A DNA stretch of 19,945 nucleotides from a virus (lineage: Duplodnaviria > Heunggongvirae > Uroviricota > Caudoviricetes). The stretch lies in the IMG/VR virus record IMGVR_UViG_2627853844_000002. One strand, given 5' to 3'. Of the stretch, positions 2,833-19,945 are shown in pieces (positions within the stretch are counted from its first letter, which is position 1; each line of letters begins with the position of its first letter). Position numbers and translations under genes: made by a program. The notes under the pieces are model-generated. The model made no database searches. It was not told the origin of the DNA and saw only the letters and a list, made by a program, of their open reading frames with translations.

Positions 2833-2859
2833 CGAAAAGTGGCCCGATGAGGGCCACAA
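2833..2859 (-). terminator. Rho-independent terminator downstream of flxA
   Basis: Inverted repeat GTGGCCC-gatga-GGGCCAC (2840-2859) followed on the minus strand by a U-rich run (CUUUUC), immediately 3' of the flxA stop. Confidence 0.55.
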
Positions 2860-2871
2860 TACGGCTGTCAC

Positions 2872-3204
2872 TTAGACGTAAATATCAATGGTGCCAGCGG
2901 TATTTGTATCGTCTTTTTTCTCTTCTTTTTTATCAGGCTGAACTGTCGCGTCTTCATTCTTTTTCTCTGCCTGCTGCCTTAACAACTGCTCCAGTTGAGC
3001 CCAGAGGCTTTCAATTTGCTTCTGTACCAATGCAGCCATTTCTTTTTTCTGCTGTGTCGTCATCCCCTCTTCCGATGAGATTTTCCCAAGCTTTTCAGTC
3101 AGCACCTGAATTTGTCTTGTGATTTTGGCTATTTCTGATGTTCCTTCCGGGGCGGAGTTGTTTGAAATAACGGTTGAGGTATTTCCCTGAATTGTGACAG
3201 ACAT
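2872..3204 (-). CDS. flxA: FlxA, FliA (sigma-28)-regulated protein (110 aa)
   Basis: ORF translation MSVTIQGNTSTVISNNSAPEGTSEIAKITRQIQVLTEKLGK...; sigma-28 promoter directly upstream. Confidence 0.85.
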   Translation of the reverse strand: MSVTIQGNTSTVISNNSAPEGTSEIAKITRQIQVLTEKLGKISSEEGMTTQQKKEMAALVQKQIESLWAQLEQLLRQQAEKKNEDATVQPDKKEEKKDDTNTAGTIDIYV

Positions 3205-3225
3205 AGATTTCTCCTTTTAAAAAAG

Positions 3226-3252
3226 CACTATCGGCATGCACAAAAAAATCTT
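3226..3252 (-). promoter_or_regulatory. Sigma-28 (FliA) class 3 promoter for flxA
   Basis: Minus strand reads TAAAGATT-N11-GCCGATAG, against the sigma-28 consensus TAAAGTTT-N11-GCCGATAA, about 25 nt upstream of the flxA ATG. Confidence 0.7.
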
Positions 3253-3406
3253 TAATCGTATTTCTTGTGTCATTAATTGTTTGATGTTCAGATTGTTTTC
3301 CTCGCGGGCTGGCGCGCCTCAGAAAGTAAAGCTTGTTGACAGGGGTAAACGTTCGGCAATAATTTTCTGCCGCATGCGGGTGTTGCATAAAACGTGTTAC
3401 GTTCCT

Positions 3407-3712
3407 TTATCGACAGGTCAGGTCACCGCTCACCCGCCGACGAGAAAGCAACACTGACATGCTAAAGCAAAAAATAGATGAATAAGTTGAGTTGTGCATA
3501 TGTAGCCTGACCGTCACAAAGTATATGGTGTCTGTACCAGTAAGATGATGGCCGGACTCTTTAAAAACGAGCTGACCTGCACAATACAGGATGGACTTAG
3601 CAATGGCTGCTCCTGGCACAAAGCGGACAGTGATCACCGTTCTTACGACTACTTTCTGACTTCCTTCGTGACTTGCCCTAAGCATGTTGTAGTGCGATAC
3701 TTGTAATGACAT
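3407..3712 (-). CDS. ydfV: Hypothetical ORF (ydfV-like, 101 aa); doubtful coding status, overlaps the relB promoter/operator
   Basis: ORF track only; length matches the annotated K-12 ydfV as I recall; no recognisable domain. Confidence 0.3.
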   Translation of the reverse strand: MSLQVSHYNMLRASHEGSQKVVVRTVITVRFVPGAAIAKSILYCAGQLVFKESGHHLTGTDTIYFVTVRLHMHNSTYSSIFCFSMSVLLSRRRVSGDLTCR

Positions 3713-8054: not shown

Positions 8055-8270
8055 ATGTCAAATAAAATGACTGGTTTAGTAAAATGGTTTAACGCTGATA
8101 AAGGTTTCGGCTTTATTTCTCCTGTTGATGGTAGTAAAGATGTGTTTGTGCATTTTTCTGCGATTCAGAATGATAATTATCGAACCTTATTTGAAGGTCA
8201 AAAGGTTACCTTCTCTATAGAGAGTGGTGCTAAAGGTCCTGCAGCAGCAAATGTCATCATTACTGATTAA
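8055..8270 (+). CDS. cspB: Cold-shock protein CspB (71 aa)
   Basis: ORF translation [71 protein letters not shown]. Confidence 0.95.
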
Positions 8271-10941: not shown

Positions 10942-11154
10942 ATGTCTAACAAAATGACTGGTTTAGTGAAATGGTTTAACCCTGAAAAAGGTTTTGGTTT
11001 CATCACGCCGAAAGATGGCAGCAAAGATGTGTTTGTCCATTTCTCAGCAATTCAGAGCAACGATTTCAAAACATTAACTGAGAATCAGGAAGTTGAATTT
11101 GGTATTGAGAACGGACCTAAAGGTCCTGCCGCTGTTCATGTAGTGGCGCTTTGA
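10942..11154 (+). CDS. cspI: Cold-shock protein CspI (70 aa)
   Basis: ORF translation [70 protein letters not shown]. Confidence 0.95.
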
Positions 11155-12598: not shown

Positions 12599-12644
12599 CT
12601 GATGAATCCCCTAATGATTTTGGTAAAAATCATTAAGTTAAGGT

Positions 12645-12713
12645 GGATACACATCTTGTCATATGATCAAATGGTTTCGCGAAAAATCAATAATCAGACA
12701 ACAAGATGTGCGA
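12645..12713 (-). ncRNA. IS10 antisense RNA-OUT (from pOUT; represses transposase translation); coordinates approximate
   Basis: Placed from established IS10 organisation (RNA-OUT covering roughly IS10 nt 47-115, overlapping the transposase start at nt 108); not derived independently from the sequence. Confidence 0.5.
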
Positions 12714-13914
12714 ACTCGATATTTTACACGACTCTCTTTACCAATTCTGCCCCGAATTACACTTAAAACGACTCAACAGCTTAACGTTGGCTTGCCACGC
12801 ATTACTTGACTGTAAAACTCTCACTCTTACCGAACTTGGCCGTAACCTGCCAACCAAAGCGAGAACAAAACATAACATCAAACGAATCGACCGATTGTTA
12901 GGTAATCGTCACCTCCACAAAGAGCGACTCGCTGTATACCGTTGGCATGCTAGCTTTATCTGTTCGGGCAATACGATGCCCATTGTACTTGTTGACTGGT
13001 CTGATATTCGTGAGCAAAAACGACTTATGGTATTGCGAGCTTCAGTCGCACTACACGGTCGTTCTGTTACTCTTTATGAGAAAGCGTTCCCGCTTTCAGA
13101 GCAATGTTCAAAGAAAGCTCATGACCAATTTCTAGCCGACCTTGCGAGCATTCTACCGAGTAACACCACACCGCTCATTGTCAGTGATGCTGGCTTTAAA
13201 GTGCCATGGTATAAATCCGTTGAGAAGCTGGGTTGGTACTGGTTAAGTCGAGTAAGAGGAAAAGTACAATATGCAGACCTAGGAGCGGAAAACTGGAAAC
13301 CTATCAGCAACTTACATGATATGTCATCTAGTCACTCAAAGACTTTAGGCTATAAGAGGCTGACTAAAAGCAATCCAATCTCATGCCAAATTCTATTGTA
13401 TAAATCTCGCTCTAAAGGCCGAAAAAATCAGCGCTCGACACGGACTCATTGTCACCACCCGTCACCTAAAATCTACTCAGCGTCGGCAAAGGAGCCATGG
13501 GTTCTAGCAACTAACTTACCTGTTGAAATTCGAACACCCAAACAACTTGTTAATATCTATTCGAAGCGAATGCAGATTGAAGAAACCTTCCGAGACTTGA
13601 AAAGTCCTGCCTACGGACTAGGCCTACGCCATAGCCGAACGAGCAGCTCAGAGCGTTTTGATATCATGCTGCTAATCGCCCTGATGCTTCAACTAACATG
13701 TTGGCTTGCGGGCGTTCATGCTCAGAAACAAGGTTGGGACAAGCACTTCCAGGCTAACACAGTCAGAAATCGAAACGTACTCTCAACAGTTCGCTTAGGC
13801 ATGGAAGTTTTGCGGCATTCTGGCTACACAATAACAAGGGAAGACTTACTCGTGGCTGCAACCCTACTAGCTCAAAATTTATTCACACATGGTTACGCTT
13901 TGGGGAAATTATGA
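12706..13914 (+). CDS. IS10 transposase (402 aa)
   Basis: ORF translation MCELDILHDSLYQFCPELHLKRLNSLTLACHALLDCKTLTLTELGRNLPTKARTKHNIKRIDRLL... recognised as IS10 transposase; start at IS10 nt 108. Confidence 0.95.
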   Translation: MCELDILHDSLYQFCPELHLKRLNSLTLACHALLDCKTLTLTELGRNLPTKARTKHNIKRIDRLLGNRHLHKERLAVYRWHASFICSGNTMPIVLVDWSDIREQKRLMVLRASVALHGRSVTLYEKAFPLSEQCSKKAHDQFLADLASILPSNTTPLIVSDAGFKVPWYKSVEKLGWYWLSRVRGKVQYADLGAENWKPISNLHDMSSSHSKTLGYKRLTKSNPISCQILLYKSRSKGRKNQRSTRTHCHHPSPKIYSASAKEPWVLATNLPVEIRTPKQLVNIYSKRMQIEETFRDLKSPAYGLGLRHSRTSSSERFDIMLLIALMLQLTCWLAGVHAQKQGWDKHFQANTVRNRNVLSTVRLGMEVLRHSGYTITREDLLVAATLLAQNLFTHGYALGKL

Positions 13915-13927
13915 GGGGATCTCTCAG

Positions 13928-13936
13928 GGCGTAGTC
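13928..13936. repeat. IS10 target-site duplication, right copy (GGCGTAGTC)
   Basis: Same 9-mer as 12590-12598, directly after the IS10 inside end. Confidence 0.9.
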
Positions 13937-13957
13937 TGCACGATTATCTAAATTGCT

Positions 13958-14191
13958 TCAATCTGGTCTGACCTGTTTTCTGAGCAATTCAGTAATGTCA
14001 CTCTTTTCTTTGTTTGCTTCAGAAGAAACTCTTTTTTCTGAGCACAGTCTCCGGCGGCAGGCTTCAATGACCCAGGCTGAGAAATTCCCGGACCCTTTTT
14101 GCTCAAGAGCGATGTTAATTTGTTCAATCATTTGGTTAGGAAAGCGGATGTTGCGGGTTGTTGTTCTGCGGGTTCTGTTCTTCGTTGACAT
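13958..14191 (-). CDS. ynfO: YnfO, uncharacterised prophage protein (77 aa)
   Basis: ORF translation MSTKNRTRRTTTRNIRFPNQMIEQINIALEQKGSGNFSAWVIEACRRRLCSEKRVSSEANKEKSDITELLRKQVRPD; stop lies 22 bp from the IS10 target duplication. Confidence 0.7.
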   Translation of the reverse strand: MSTKNRTRRTTTRNIRFPNQMIEQINIALEQKGSGNFSAWVIEACRRRLCSEKRVSSEANKEKSDITELLRKQVRPD

Positions 14192-14329
14192 GAGGTTGCC
14201 CCGTATTCAGTGTCGCTGATTTGTATTGTCTGAAGTTGTTTTTACGTTAAGTTGATGCAGATCAATTAATACGATACCTGCGTCATAATTGATTATTTGA
14301 CGTGGTTTGATGGCCTCCACGCACGTTGT

Positions 14330-14579
14330 GATATGTAGATGATAATCATTATCACTTTACGGGTCCTTTCCGGTGATCCGACAGGTTACGGGGCGGCGAC
14401 CTCGCGGGTTTTCGCTATTTATGAAAATTTTCCGGTTTAAGGCATTTCCGTTCTTCTTCGTCGTAACTTAATGTTTTTATTTAAAATACCCCCTGAAAAG
14501 AAAGGAAACGACAGGTGCTGAAAACGAGCTTTTGGGCCTCTGTCGTTTCCTTTCTCTGTTTTTGGCCGTGGAATGAACA
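14330..14579 (+). other. Lambda-type cohesive-end site: cosQ / cosN (GGGCGGCGACCT at 14391-14402) / cosB
   Basis: CGCACGTTGTGATATGTAGATGATAATCATTATCACTTTACGGGTCCTTTCCGGTGATCCGACAGGTTACG followed by GGGCGGCGACCTCGCGGGTTTTCGCTATTTATGAAAATTTTCCGG... matches the lambda right-end/left-end junction as I recall it, with a few substitutions in cosB. Confidence 0.85.
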
Positions 14580-15149
14580 ATGGAAGTCAACAAAAAGCAG
14601 CTGGCTGACATTTTCGGTGCGAGTATCCGTACCATTCAGAACTGGCAGGAACAGGGAATGCCCGTTCTGCGAGGCGGTGGCAAGGGTAATGAGGTGCTTT
14701 ATGACTCTGCCGCCGTTATAAGATGGTATGCCGAAAGGGATGCTGAAATTGAGAACGAAAAGCTGCGCCGGGAAGTTGAAGAACTGCGGCAGGCCAGCGA
14801 GACAGATCTCCAGCCAGGGACTATTGAGTACGAACGCCATCGACTTACGCGTGCGCAGGCCGACGCACAGGAGCTGAAAAATGCCAGAGACTCCGCTGAA
14901 GTGGTGGAAACCGCATTCTGTACTTTCGTGCTGTCGCGGATCGCAGGTGAAATTGCCAGTATTCTCGACGGGATCCCCCTGTCGGTGCAGCGGCGTTTTC
15001 CGGAACTGGAAAACCGACATGTTGATTTCCTGAAACGGGATATCATCAAAGCCATGAACAAAGCAGCCGCGCTGGATGAACTGATACCGGGGTTGCTGAG
15101 TGAATATAACCGCGCTGACAGACAATACGCAGGGGGCAGCAGGTCTTGA
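14580..15149 (+). CDS. nohA: Terminase small subunit Nu1 homolog, C-terminally altered by a deletion fusion (189 aa)
   Basis: ORF translation [46 protein letters not shown]... matches lambda Nu1 as recalled up to ...LLSEY, then diverges into [13 protein letters not shown] where the sequence joins stf. Confidence 0.9.
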
Positions 15150-16062
15150 GTTATACGAGGTGTATAACAACGGATATCCAACAGCGTATGGAAATATCAT
15201 TCACCTGAAAGGGATGACAGCCGTTGGCGAAGGTGAGTTACTCATCGGCTGGAGTGGTACAAGCGGTGCTCATGCTCCGGCATTTATTCGTTCACGACGG
15301 GATACGACCGACGCAAACTGGTCGCCGTGGGCGCAGCTTTACACCTCGGCTCATCCTCCTGCAGAGTTTTATCCAGTCGGTGCACCAATCCCGTGGCCAT
15401 CAGATACCGTTCCGTCTGGTTATGCCCTGATGCAGGGGCAGACTTTTGACAAATCTGCATACCCGAAACTTGCAGTTGCTTATCCGTCAGGCGTGATCCC
15501 TGATATGCGTGGCTGGACGATTAAGGGCAAGCCCGCCAGTGGTCGGGCCGTATTATCTCAGGAACAGGACGGCATTAAATCGCACACCCACAGCGCCAGC
15601 GCATCCAGTACGGATTTGGGGACGGAAACCACATCGTCGTTTGATTACGGAACCAAATCCACGAATAACACCGGGGCGCATACCCATAGTATTAGCGGGA
15701 CCGCAAATAGTGCCGGTGCGCACCAACACAAGAGTTCCGGTGCATTTGGTGGCACGAACACGAGCATTTTCCCTAATGGTTATACCGCGATTTCAAATCT
15801 AAGCGCGGGGATTATGAGCACAACAAGCGGTAGTGGCCAGACTCGTAATGCAGGGAAGACATCATCAGATGGTGCTCATACCCACTCGCTGTCCGGCACT
15901 GCTGCAAGCGCAGGCGCGCATGCACATACTGTCGGTATTGGTGCTCATACGCACTCCGTTGCGATTGGTTCACATGGACACACCATCACCGTTAACGCTG
16001 CTGGTAACGCGGAAAACACCGTCAAAAACATCGCATTTAACTATATTGTGAGGCTTGCATAA
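15100..16062 (+). CDS. stfQ: Side-tail-fibre C-terminal fragment (320-aa ORF from GTG; 5'-truncated remnant, likely not independently expressed)
   Basis: ORF begins inside nohA with no SD; Gly/Ser/Thr/Ala-rich with repeated GAHTHS / AGAHxH motifs typical of phage tail-fibre distal domains; followed by the tail-fibre assembly gene. Confidence 0.7.
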
Positions 16063-17641: not shown

Positions 17642-17875
17642 TTACATTTTACCATTTAAATTTTGGTTGTCTTTAAGAACTGATATCGCTGTTTGTAATA
17701 ATTCTTTGTTATCCAGCCATGATGTTTTCTTTATGTTTCCTTCAATGTAATCAAGCAATGTTCTGGTATTGATAGGTCTTCCCTGTTTTGCTACTTCCAC
17801 TACAGCATCCCCTAGGATAATTCTTACTTCAGGAAGCTGCGCAGGGAACCACTTTAGGGTGTCTTTTGATTTCAT
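17642..17875 (-). CDS. ydfK: YdfK (77 aa), small prophage protein
   Basis: Internal Met of ORF 17642..17908: MKSKDTLKWFPAQLPEVRIILGDAVVEVAKQGRPINTRTLLDYIEGNIKKTSWLDNKELLQTAISVLKDNQNLNGKM; AAGGAAT SD upstream. Confidence 0.7.
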   Translation of the reverse strand: MKSKDTLKWFPAQLPEVRIILGDAVVEVAKQGRPINTRTLLDYIEGNIKKTSWLDNKELLQTAISVLKDNQNLNGKM

Positions 17876-18661
17876 GAAGATATTCCTTAAAATATTATTG
17901 ATTTTCATTGCGATATTGTATGTCTGATTCAGGATATGTTGACTTATACATCGGTTTTGTCTGGGTTATTGGATATGCCAATCCCTAATTTTATTAGAGC
18001 ATGACTAAAAATGCTGAATATGATAAGGAGCGAAGTGATTATCAGTATGCTGTTCATATAGCCTCGAATTAGTAATGTGTTATATATGATATAGTTGACA
18101 ATTTTTATCCTGGGTGTTCTTAAAGTTCGTAGATAAACATTGTCGTTTCAGGTATACAGGAATGCTAACAGGTGGCGGCAAAAATCAGGCGGTTTATGGC
18201 GCAAGCTGAAGTGGCAACTGCAAACTATCTTATGCAGAGACTCTACACGGATTGGGTTTAAAAGTATACATAGATAACAGTTTTTATCTGAAAAAGAAAA
18301 ATATCAAGGTGATATAGCCTATATGCCTTTGATGCGGAGGAATGAATGTGATGGGAGTGATGTATCTGAATAGTTGAAAAACCGCAGACACACCTTATGC
18401 AAGAACGTGCTGCGATTGGCTGGTAAATTTTTCGATAGTGTGAGTATTGAATGATTTCCAGCCGTTCTTGATTTTACGCATAAATCCATGAAAAAACTAC
18501 TTATCTGTTGGGGAGTTTTTTTGGGGCATATATGGGACAGAAATAGGCCCCAGATAGACACTGAGATCGAACTTAGGATGCTTTTTAAAAAAATGCAACT
18601 ATCTGAAAAAACCTAGAAAACGCCAAGGAAACCACAGGATGGGAAAAAACACCTGTGAATT

Positions 18662-19945
18662 ATGGATTTCCAGTTATATTCGCTCGGCGCAGCGTTAGTG
18701 TTTCATGAAATATTTTTTCCTGAATCATCAACGGCAATGGCGTTAATTCTGGCAATGGGAACCTACGGTGCAGGTTATGTGGCGCGTATTGTCGGAGCAT
18801 TTATTTTCGGCAAAATGGGCGACAGAATAGGGCGTAAAAAAGTGCTCTTTATTACCATCACCATGATGGGGATCTGTACCACCTTAATTGGTGTGTTACC
18901 GACCTATGCACAGATTGGTGTTTTTGCACCCATCTTGCTGGTGACGTTGCGTATTATTCAGGGGTTGGGTGCAGGTGCGGAAATTTCCGGTGCCGGTACG
19001 ATGCTGGCGGAATATGCGCCAAAAGGTAAGCGCGGAATTATCTCCTCATTTGTGGCTATGGGAACTAACTGCGGAACCTTGAGCGCAACGGCAATCTGGG
19101 CCTTTATGTTCTTCATTCTCAGTAAAGAGGAACTGCTGGCGTGGGGATGGCGTATACCGTTCCTGGCGAGTGTTGTCGTGATGGTCTTTGCTATCTGGTT
19201 GCGTATGAATCTGAAAGAAAGCCCGGTCTTTGAGAAGGTTAACGACAGTAACCAACCGACAGCAAAACCTGCACCTGCTGGTAGCATGTTCCAGAGCAAA
19301 TCCTTCTGGCTGGCAACAGGGCTGCGTTTTGGTCAGGCGGGTAACTCCGGGTTAATTCAGACTTTCCTTGCAGGCTATTTAGTGCAGACGTTATTGTTTA
19401 ACAAAGCAATTCCAACAGATGCATTGATGATCAGTTCGATTCTCGGCTTTATGACCATTCCGTTCCTTGGTTGGTTATCCGATAAAATTGGTCGCCGGAT
19501 CCCGTATATTATTATGAATACCTCCGCGATTGTGCTGGCATGGCCAATGCTTTCTATCATTGTAGATAAAAGCTATGCCCCGAGCACCATTATGGTTGCA
19601 CTGATTGTGATTCATAACTGTGCGGTGCTGGGATTATTTGCTCTGGAAAACATTACCATGGCAGAAATGTTCGGCTGTAAAAACCGCTTTACCCGGATGG
19701 CTATTTCTAAAGAAATTGGTGGTCTTATCGCTTCCGGTTTTGGTCCTATCCTGGCGGGTATTTTCTGCACCATGACGGAATCCTGGTATCCGATCGCCAT
19801 TATGATCATGGCATATTCAGTGATTGGTTTAATCTCTGCGCTGAAAATGCCAGAGGTGAAAGACCGTGATTTAAGTGCGCTGGAAGACGCTGCGGAAGAT
19901 CAACCGCGTGTTGTAAGAGCTGCGCAACCTTCCAGAAGTCTGTAA
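18662..19945 (+). CDS. ydfJ: MFS transporter (metabolite:H+ symporter family, ProP/ShiA/KgtP-like), apparently N-terminally truncated (427 aa)
   Basis: Many hydrophobic transmembrane segments; the G-x3-D-R-x-G-R-K motif occurs at about residue 50 rather than about residue 90, implying loss of the first one to two transmembrane helices; an in-frame stop lies 2 codons upstream of the ATG. Confidence 0.8.
   Translation: MDFQLYSLGAALVFHEIFFPESSTAMALILAMGTYGAGYVARIVGAFIFGKMGDRIGRKKVLFITITMMGICTTLIGVLPTYAQIGVFAPILLVTLRIIQGLGAGAEISGAGTMLAEYAPKGKRGIISSFVAMGTNCGTLSATAIWAFMFFILSKEELLAWGWRIPFLASVVVMVFAIWLRMNLKESPVFEKVNDSNQPTAKPAPAGSMFQSKSFWLATGLRFGQAGNSGLIQTFLAGYLVQTLLFNKAIPTDALMISSILGFMTIPFLGWLSDKIGRRIPYIIMNTSAIVLAWPMLSIIVDKSYAPSTIMVALIVIHNCAVLGLFALENITMAEMFGCKNRFTRMAISKEIGGLIASGFGPILAGIFCTMTESWYPIAIMIMAYSVIGLISALKMPEVKDRDLSALEDAAEDQPRVVRAAQPSRSL

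Follow-up and report, generated by a model that had tools for sequence, protein, structure and literature searches.

What is a lambda cos site doing in a prophage that can no longer package itself, and could a helper phage still make use of it? The site lies in a window of 19,945 nucleotides, the whole stretch of viral DNA analysed here (IMG/VR record IMGVR_UViG_2627853844_000002). The original prediction was that the terminase of a co-resident or superinfecting lambdoid phage could cut at this cos and mobilise the neighbouring DNA. Its structural premise, that an intact lambda-type cos adjoins an altered Nu1 homologue in a defective prophage, is confirmed by alignment. The account that best explains the whole, and in which we place considerable confidence, is that the Qin prophage has kept its packaging origin, a lambda-type cos intact in sequence, beside a deletion of about 21.1 kb, and that nicking by a terminase would lead to a break and to recombination.

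The window is the Qin cryptic prophage of E. coli K-12, in the ER2796 lineage. About 1.2 kb surrounding cos and nohA match many E. coli K-12 genomes at 100% identity, and the gene is annotated nohA there, while C600 and MG1655 are 99.9–100% identical to the window, with the same annotation and the same gene order. This order runs from dicB, dicA/dicC, relBE, hokD, ydfU, the Q-like ydfT and cspF/cspB, through essD-ydfR-rrrQ-rzpQ, cspI, gnsB, ydfO and ynfO, to nohA, stfQ, tfaQ, pinQ, ydfK and ynfT, with the prophage inserted in ydfJ. Its right-hand part includes the following features:

15109 to 16062, plus strand: stfQ', the C-terminal remnant of a side tail fibre gene (Pfam Collar and Phage_fiber), annotated as stfQ or as a partial tail protein.
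18670 to 18673, no strand: attR, the right prophage/host junction inside ydfJ; the MG1655 feature "cryptic prophage Qin" starts at 1632277, and the end of the PhiR42_1 homology agrees.

attR is thus 4.28 kb downstream of cosN in the packaging direction. The Qin locus and its homology to lambda have long been known, reportedly in part from lambda qin hybrids (the lambda qin111 work), and the RefSeq records for C600 and MG1655 carry the cos without a feature annotation. Several peculiarities of the window may be recorded alongside. Between ydfO and ynfO, at a distance of about 460 bp upstream from cosN, sits an IS10/ISVsa5 element of 1329 bp (12599-13927) that encodes a 402-aa DDE transposase and is flanked by a 9-bp target duplication, GGCGTAGTC; among 5426 complete genomes the insertion is present only in ER2796 and ER3413, and C600 and MG1655 are without it. 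In the ydfK-ynfT region, positions 17724-18235 differ from the Qin copy of MG1655 and C600 by 8 clustered SNPs; with the paralogous Rac copy (ynaE/ynaM) of K-12 genomes the agreement is 100%, which indicates a gene-conversion patch from Rac to Qin in this strain lineage. The prophage also carries two cold-shock paralogues, cspB and cspI (8055-8245 and 10942-11132), which are 73% identical, and the late region has four morons of the csp family, namely cspB, cspI, cspF and ydfK.

For the comparison with lambda, the reference was the DE3 record, in which the cos site is annotated; the lambda coordinate equals the window position minus 14390. Positions 14200-15108 align with lambda without gaps at 98.5% identity, and the 389 bp at 14055-14443, spanning cosQ, cosN and I2, are 100% identical. 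Since the cosN 22-mer, moreover, has no second match in the window at 5 or fewer mismatches, chance is excluded and the site is cos by homology. Its subsites are as follows:

14361 to 14367, plus strand: cosQ (GGGTCCT), the termination subsite, lambda bp 48473-48479; identical to lambda and invariant across 9 aligned phage and prophage cos regions.
14385 to 14406, plus strand: cosN, the 22-bp nicking site; 22 of 22 positions as in lambda.
14408 to 14440, plus strand: I2 (lambda bp 18-50); 100% identical to lambda.
14440 to 14455, plus strand: cosB R3, a TerS binding site (lambda bp 50-65); one change, G54A, at 14444.
14460 to 14498 (limits approximate), plus strand: the I1 region, with the IHF site between R3 and R2; variants at 14463 and 14492.
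14499 to 14514, minus strand: cosB R2, an inverted copy of R1 (16 of 16 positions as an inverted repeat); identical to lambda.
14540 to 14555, plus strand: cosB R1; identical to lambda.

The alignment thus upholds the near-identity with lambda that had been claimed for cosQ, cosN and cosB, and cosN, with its full identity, shows no mutation at its nick sites. (For the limits of I2 we follow PMC4856287.) The 12-nt cohesive end, GGGCGGCGACCT, occupies 14391-14402 and is accompanied by the flanking symmetric bases, with cosQ upstream; in MG1655 the same end is found at 1636556-1636545 on the complementary strand. In cosB, R3, I1, R2 and R1 follow one another in the lambda order and at the lambda spacing, and the TerS start falls at about bp 191. 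The nohA ATG at 14580 aligns opposite the lambda Nu1 ATG, at lambda bp 190 by the offset used here; the Nu1 ATG is given as bp 191 in PMC9026076, so the offset between window and lambda may be 1 base out. Every sequence-level requirement for initiation by a lambda-type terminase is present: cosN, I2, the R3-I1-R2-R1 array and the spacing between them. By every sequence criterion tested, then, the feature is a lambda-type cos, followed by a gene of the Nu1 family whose product is altered at its extreme C-terminus.

How did such a site come to lack the genes that should follow it? The answer comes from Escherichia phage PhiR42_1 (PV340562), a lambdoid, full-length relative of Qin with a complete genome that has int, xis, exoVIII, an immunity region of the dicA/dicC type, relBE, Q and the lysis genes and, in its late part, cos, Nu1, A through J, lom, stf, tfa and pin. 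The relevant features in the window are:

14580 to 15149, plus strand: nohA, a Nu1 (TerS) homologue of 189 aa (Pfam PF07471), annotated nohA, b1548.
15107 to 15108, no strand: the deletion junction, with a 2-bp microhomology (TA), joining Nu1 codon 177 to stf nucleotide 2126.

Window positions 13927-15108 correspond to PhiR42_1 23035-24216, and 15107-15698 to 45353-45944, so that 21,136 bp are missing from Qin, from Nu1 codon 177 into stf. A blastn search of the window against PhiR42_1 24217-45352 gave no match, and no terminase A, head or tail genes are annotated at the locus in C600 or MG1655. The absence of the large terminase and of all head genes is thereby borne out, and with it the statement that the element is unable to package itself. 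A single illegitimate deletion of about 21.1 kb removed the end of Nu1, A, the head and tail genes, J, lom and two thirds of stf. The resulting nohA-stf junction was found in 421 genomes, all of them K-12 laboratory strains among the matches listed. The comparison with PhiR42_1 provides an exact, base-level account of how Qin became defective. There is a second breakpoint relative to this phage at 2251-2252, where K-12 Qin is missing phage positions 7897-12695, a segment that holds cII, an O-like replication gene, lygF, a methyltransferase and an IS.

The same deletion accounts for the peculiar end of NohA: it took place at the 2-bp microhomology and put 13 out-of-frame codons in the place of the last 5 of Nu1. 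Residues 1-176 are 100% identical to Nu1 of PhiR42_1 and differ from lambda Nu1 only by K48R, A75T and L132I; thereafter, out-of-frame translation of stf supplies 13 residues in place of IEQSG, giving a protein of 189 rather than 181 aa. The small terminase had been described as C-terminally altered, which is correct, and as truncated, which overstates the change: 176 of the 181 residues are kept and the protein is longer than Nu1. The PF07471 match (336.5 bits, profile positions 1-164 of 164) takes in the winged-HTH and oligomerisation regions, and there are structure matches to PDB 1J9I (E=3e-39) and 6HN7 (E=1e-58); the solved DNA-binding domain of lambda TerS is among the structures matched. 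The TerL-binding domain of Nu1 is formed by the C-terminal 40 or so residues (PMC9026076); NohA keeps 35 of these 40, the last 5 being swapped for 13 unrelated ones. A promoter scan upstream of nohA found no sigma-70-like site, and expression probably depends on Q-mediated late read-through, which here would also have to cross the IS10. This element stands in the route of Q-dependent late transcription towards nohA.

What would a helper make of this site? Initiation of packaging needs cosN and cosB, and termination needs cosQ and cosN; TerS and IHF bind cosB, TerL is positioned to nick cosN, and the terminase, which stays on the cosB end, docks on the prohead and translocates away from cosN through cosB (PMC4669245, PMC9026076). 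Since all initiation elements are present, a terminase of lambda specificity supplied in trans should be able to cut the Qin cos. It would assemble on cosB with IHF, nick cosN, remain on the cosB end and move rightwards through nohA, stfQ', tfaQ, pinQ and ydfK, leaving the prophage after 4.3 kb and passing into ydfJ, ydfI, dcp, mar, lsr and hipBA. That a helper terminase nicks the site and starts packaging rightwards into ydfJ and beyond is plausible. Completing it is another matter: in the 56 kb downstream there is no cosN-like 22-mer (up to 5 mismatches) and no copy of the 12-mer (up to 1 mismatch). With no cosQ-cosN downstream, packaging has no way to end, and no mature transducing particles should form; what could realistically follow is a double-strand break in the chromosome, together with recombination. 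In the classical docL particles of lambda, heads with a single cos contain host DNA; they arise from unexcised prophages at low frequency, and rare single-cos defective particles of this type are at most what is expected here.

Signs of recombination at cosN are found in the natural phage population. The feature concerned is:

14272 to 14374, no strand: a patch of lambda-type haplotype left of cosN, containing all 11 differences from PhiR42_1 in 1182 bp.

These 11 differences lie 17-119 bp left of the nick, and the window is identical to lambda there. Across 90 natural loci, the haplotypes of the left patch and of cosB occur in many combinations, and this reassortment identifies cosN as a recombination breakpoint in this phage family. 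The 389-bp identity with lambda, set against the 11 differences from PhiR42_1, prompted the idea of a K-12-specific gene conversion from lambda to Qin. It was rejected as unnecessary, since the lambda-type left patch is present in 17 of the 90 loci, with several cosB types, and one IMG/VR contig (L070) carries the exact K-12 haplotype with an intact Nu1-A. A cos that has been cut by terminase stimulates recombination to its left. The reassortment at cosN fits this left-of-cos stimulation, as well as an experiment by De Paepe et al. with DLP12 and lambda. In that experiment, recombination between lambda and DLP12 at cos/nu1 was 100-fold above that at the tail-fibre homologies of Qin and Rac, half of the lambda/DLP12 junctions adjoined cos, and the recombinants were viable, including some with the crossover to the right of cos; Qin was tested at stf/tfa only, cos not being covered (PMC3945230). 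The free end left of cosN would be recombinogenic, and infecting lambdoid phages could take up cos, Nu1 and late-region alleles from Qin or pass theirs on to it. Such cos-stimulated recombination would be a likelier consequence of cutting than mobilisation. The reassortment itself speaks for the phage population generally, and not for events at this chromosomal copy.

One could go further and suppose that the Qin cos is live: that it is nicked during growth of phages with lambda specificity, that rare docL-like heads of about 44 kb (ydfJ-hipBA) are formed, that the break drives the exchange at cosN, and that NohA may join in. This reading we consider unlikely. If it were true, the host DNA carried would extend from ydfJ through dcp, marRAB and lsr to hipBA.

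The mobilisation of the neighbouring region put forward in the original prediction is improbable. Under this proposal the orphan cos would be a helper-dependent packaging origin that mobilises the chromosome from ydfJ through mar and lsr to hipA, in a manner resembling lateral transduction. The part concerning initiation stands: the initiation subsites are all intact and correctly spaced, packaging would lead out of the prophage with attR only 4.3 kb away, and docL particles show that such an event can occur at low frequency. What does not stand is the remainder, since sequence-specific termination is lacking, with no second cosQ-cosN within about 56 kb downstream. Lateral transduction, moreover, starts from a headful pac site, and the Qin site is a cos, at which termination requires cosQ and cosN. 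The published data argue against efficient mobilisation as well: cos phages are stated not to perform lateral transduction (PMC12829572), and in purified lambda particles from a K-12 lysogen the reads fell almost exclusively on lambda and about 25 kb to each side of it, the host reads coming almost only from around the lambda attachment site (PMC7667829).

Could the site instead be dead? It might be neutral DNA that has not yet mutated further, a relic as far as lambda helpers are concerned, with assembly of TerS and IHF weakened by G54A or the flanking variants, or both. From cosN to the ATG, Qin departs from lambda by six substitutions: G>A at bp 54, A>G at 73, T>C at 102, G>A at 134, T>G at 144 and T>G at 175. 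The segment ACGAGCTTTTGGGCC had been singled out as differing from the lambda cosB; the difference is real and consists of bp 134 and 144 (window 14524 and 14534), but these lie in the spacer between R2 and R1, outside the repeats. The sole variant within an R element is that at bp 54, inside R3 (bp 50-65). TerS contacts mapped by NMR cover bp 55-63 (PMC9026076), which places bp 54 just outside the contacted bases.

To what extent are these variants a sign of decay? Scanning of the IMG/VR viral contigs for the cosQ-cosN core yielded 120 loci, of which 93 have a lambda-type cos. Among the latter, the Qin alleles at bp 54, 73, 102, 134, 144 and 175 have frequencies of 16, 66, 61, 47, 33 and 35%, respectively. 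54A is found in 15 of the 93 and in PhiR42_1, and the I1 variants at 14463 and 14492 are the majority alleles (61/93 and 57/93) and are both present in DLP12, too. The complete Qin-like phage PhiR42_1 combines all six with an intact Nu1-A, and at least 8 IMG/VR contigs have the full Qin cosB haplotype with an intact Nu1-A junction downstream of it. L070, for example, is 99.9% identical to the window over 8.8 kb and has an identical cos, followed by the rest of Nu1 and A. Since the same haplotype is found beside intact terminase genes in natural Qin-type prophages, the variants do not represent decay. To all appearances, the cos of K-12 Qin is a normal working allele kept in a broken prophage.

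Besides the position of G54A inside R3, one observation speaks for the relic. In 77 IMG/VR loci, 54A (window 14444) always goes with R48 in Nu1 (window 14722; 11 of 11) and never with K48, while 54G is paired with K48 in 58 of 65 loci. This is the sole hint of co-variation between TerS and its site that was seen, and it probably reflects linkage. Co-adaptation of R3 54A with Nu1 K48R was considered and not adopted, the two positions being 278 bp apart and the pattern nested as linkage predicts. Because 54A occurs only with R48, the natural pairings do not prove that lambda's own TerS accepts the Qin R3. Against the relic, bp 54 is not among the bases contacted, K48R is a conservative change, 54A is nested inside the R48 haplotype as linkage would have it, the remaining five variants are common and occur with K48-type Nu1 too, and the recombination signature at cosN is consistent with cutting. 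A dead cos is thus very unlikely, and an intact site that a lambda-type terminase could nick is still the preferred reading. Another group of contigs was seen in IMG/VR: about 18 (L015, L016, L020-L022, L040, L050 and others), the "TATTAA" class, have the exact cosQ-cosN core and the first 50 or so bp of lambda, followed by unrelated sequence in place of cosB. Presumably these phages use the lambda cosN but package with another specificity.

We know of no interference phenotype reported for K-12, the standard lambda host, and this counts against the last possibility, that NohA has been kept for its action on superinfecting phages, as a functional substitute for TerS or as a poison or decoy subunit that would bind cosB or Nu1, couple poorly to TerL and so disturb packaging (Rpp-like interference). 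The idea is scarcely credible. In its favour, the DNA-binding and oligomerisation regions are 100% identical to those of a working phage Nu1, the extreme C-terminus of the TerL-binding domain is altered, and the nu1 homologue of DLP12 is functional in lambda (PMC3945230). Against it, the changed residues are only 5 of the 40 in the C-terminal domain, expression should need Q-dependent read-through, there being no promoter-like site upstream, and accidental deletion fully explains the fusion.

In practice the consequences are modest, and no new question is opened. The chromosome of standard K-12 hosts contains a lambda cos in Qin and another in DLP12, both intact in sequence, which may be cut by terminase during lambda growth, cosmid work and in vivo packaging. 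The two prophages would also be reservoirs of cos, Nu1 and late-gene alleles for lambdoid phages.

How does the locus compare with other systems that use a lambda-type cos? The cos-type PICIs of E. coli, those with Rpp, are similar in being chromosomal, in having a lambda-like cosQ and cosN, and in depending on the terminase and capsids of a helper (PMC9026076). Unlike Qin, they excise, replicate, and carry Rpp and a non-phage cosB that redirects TerS. In Qin, cosB is the phage's own R3-I1-R2-R1, the gene after cos is Nu1, and there is no Rpp, so that the Qin cos is not that of a PICI. Nor is Qin a capsid-sized unit between two cos sites: a single cos is found within 56 kb, and the window lacks the cII-O segment present in PhiR42_1. 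As far as excision is concerned, the comparison with PICIs covers the window only, the int and xis positions being outside it.

PhiR42_1 is 99.95% identical to the window over 10.3 kb of the early and late regions; the identity is 100% in the stretch that begins 16 bp to the left of the cosN nick and extends to Nu1 codon 176, six variants included. It differs in keeping int, xis, the replication genes and the 21.1 kb between A and stf, and in having another haplotype in the 103 bp left of cosN. Lambda itself shares cosQ, cosN, I2, R2 and R1, as well as the spacing to the TerS start codon, with 98% identity between its TerS and NohA over residues 1-176; Qin is set apart by six substitutions in cosB and the leader, three in TerS, a replaced C-terminal pentapeptide, and the lack of gene A and the head genes downstream.

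A parallel is to be found in the same host. In E. coli K-12, DLP12 too has an orphan lambda-type cos, whose cosN is identical and which is accompanied by a Nu1 homologue, nohD; the DLP12 cos/nu1 region recombines with lambda and is functional (PMC3945230). As in Qin, the cos region is followed by a deletion, in this case leading into aaaD' and tfaD. At positions 2855-3598 of locus L011 (DLP12 of MG1655), the order is cos, full-length nohD, and then a short piece of A (aaaD) that has been fused to tfaD. DLP12 differs from Qin in that NohD is full-length (181 aa), a fragment of A survives, and the cosB haplotype is GGCGTT, compared to AGCAGG in Qin. The loss of head and tail genes from DLP12 is a deletion independent of, and analogous to, that of Qin, in the same genome.
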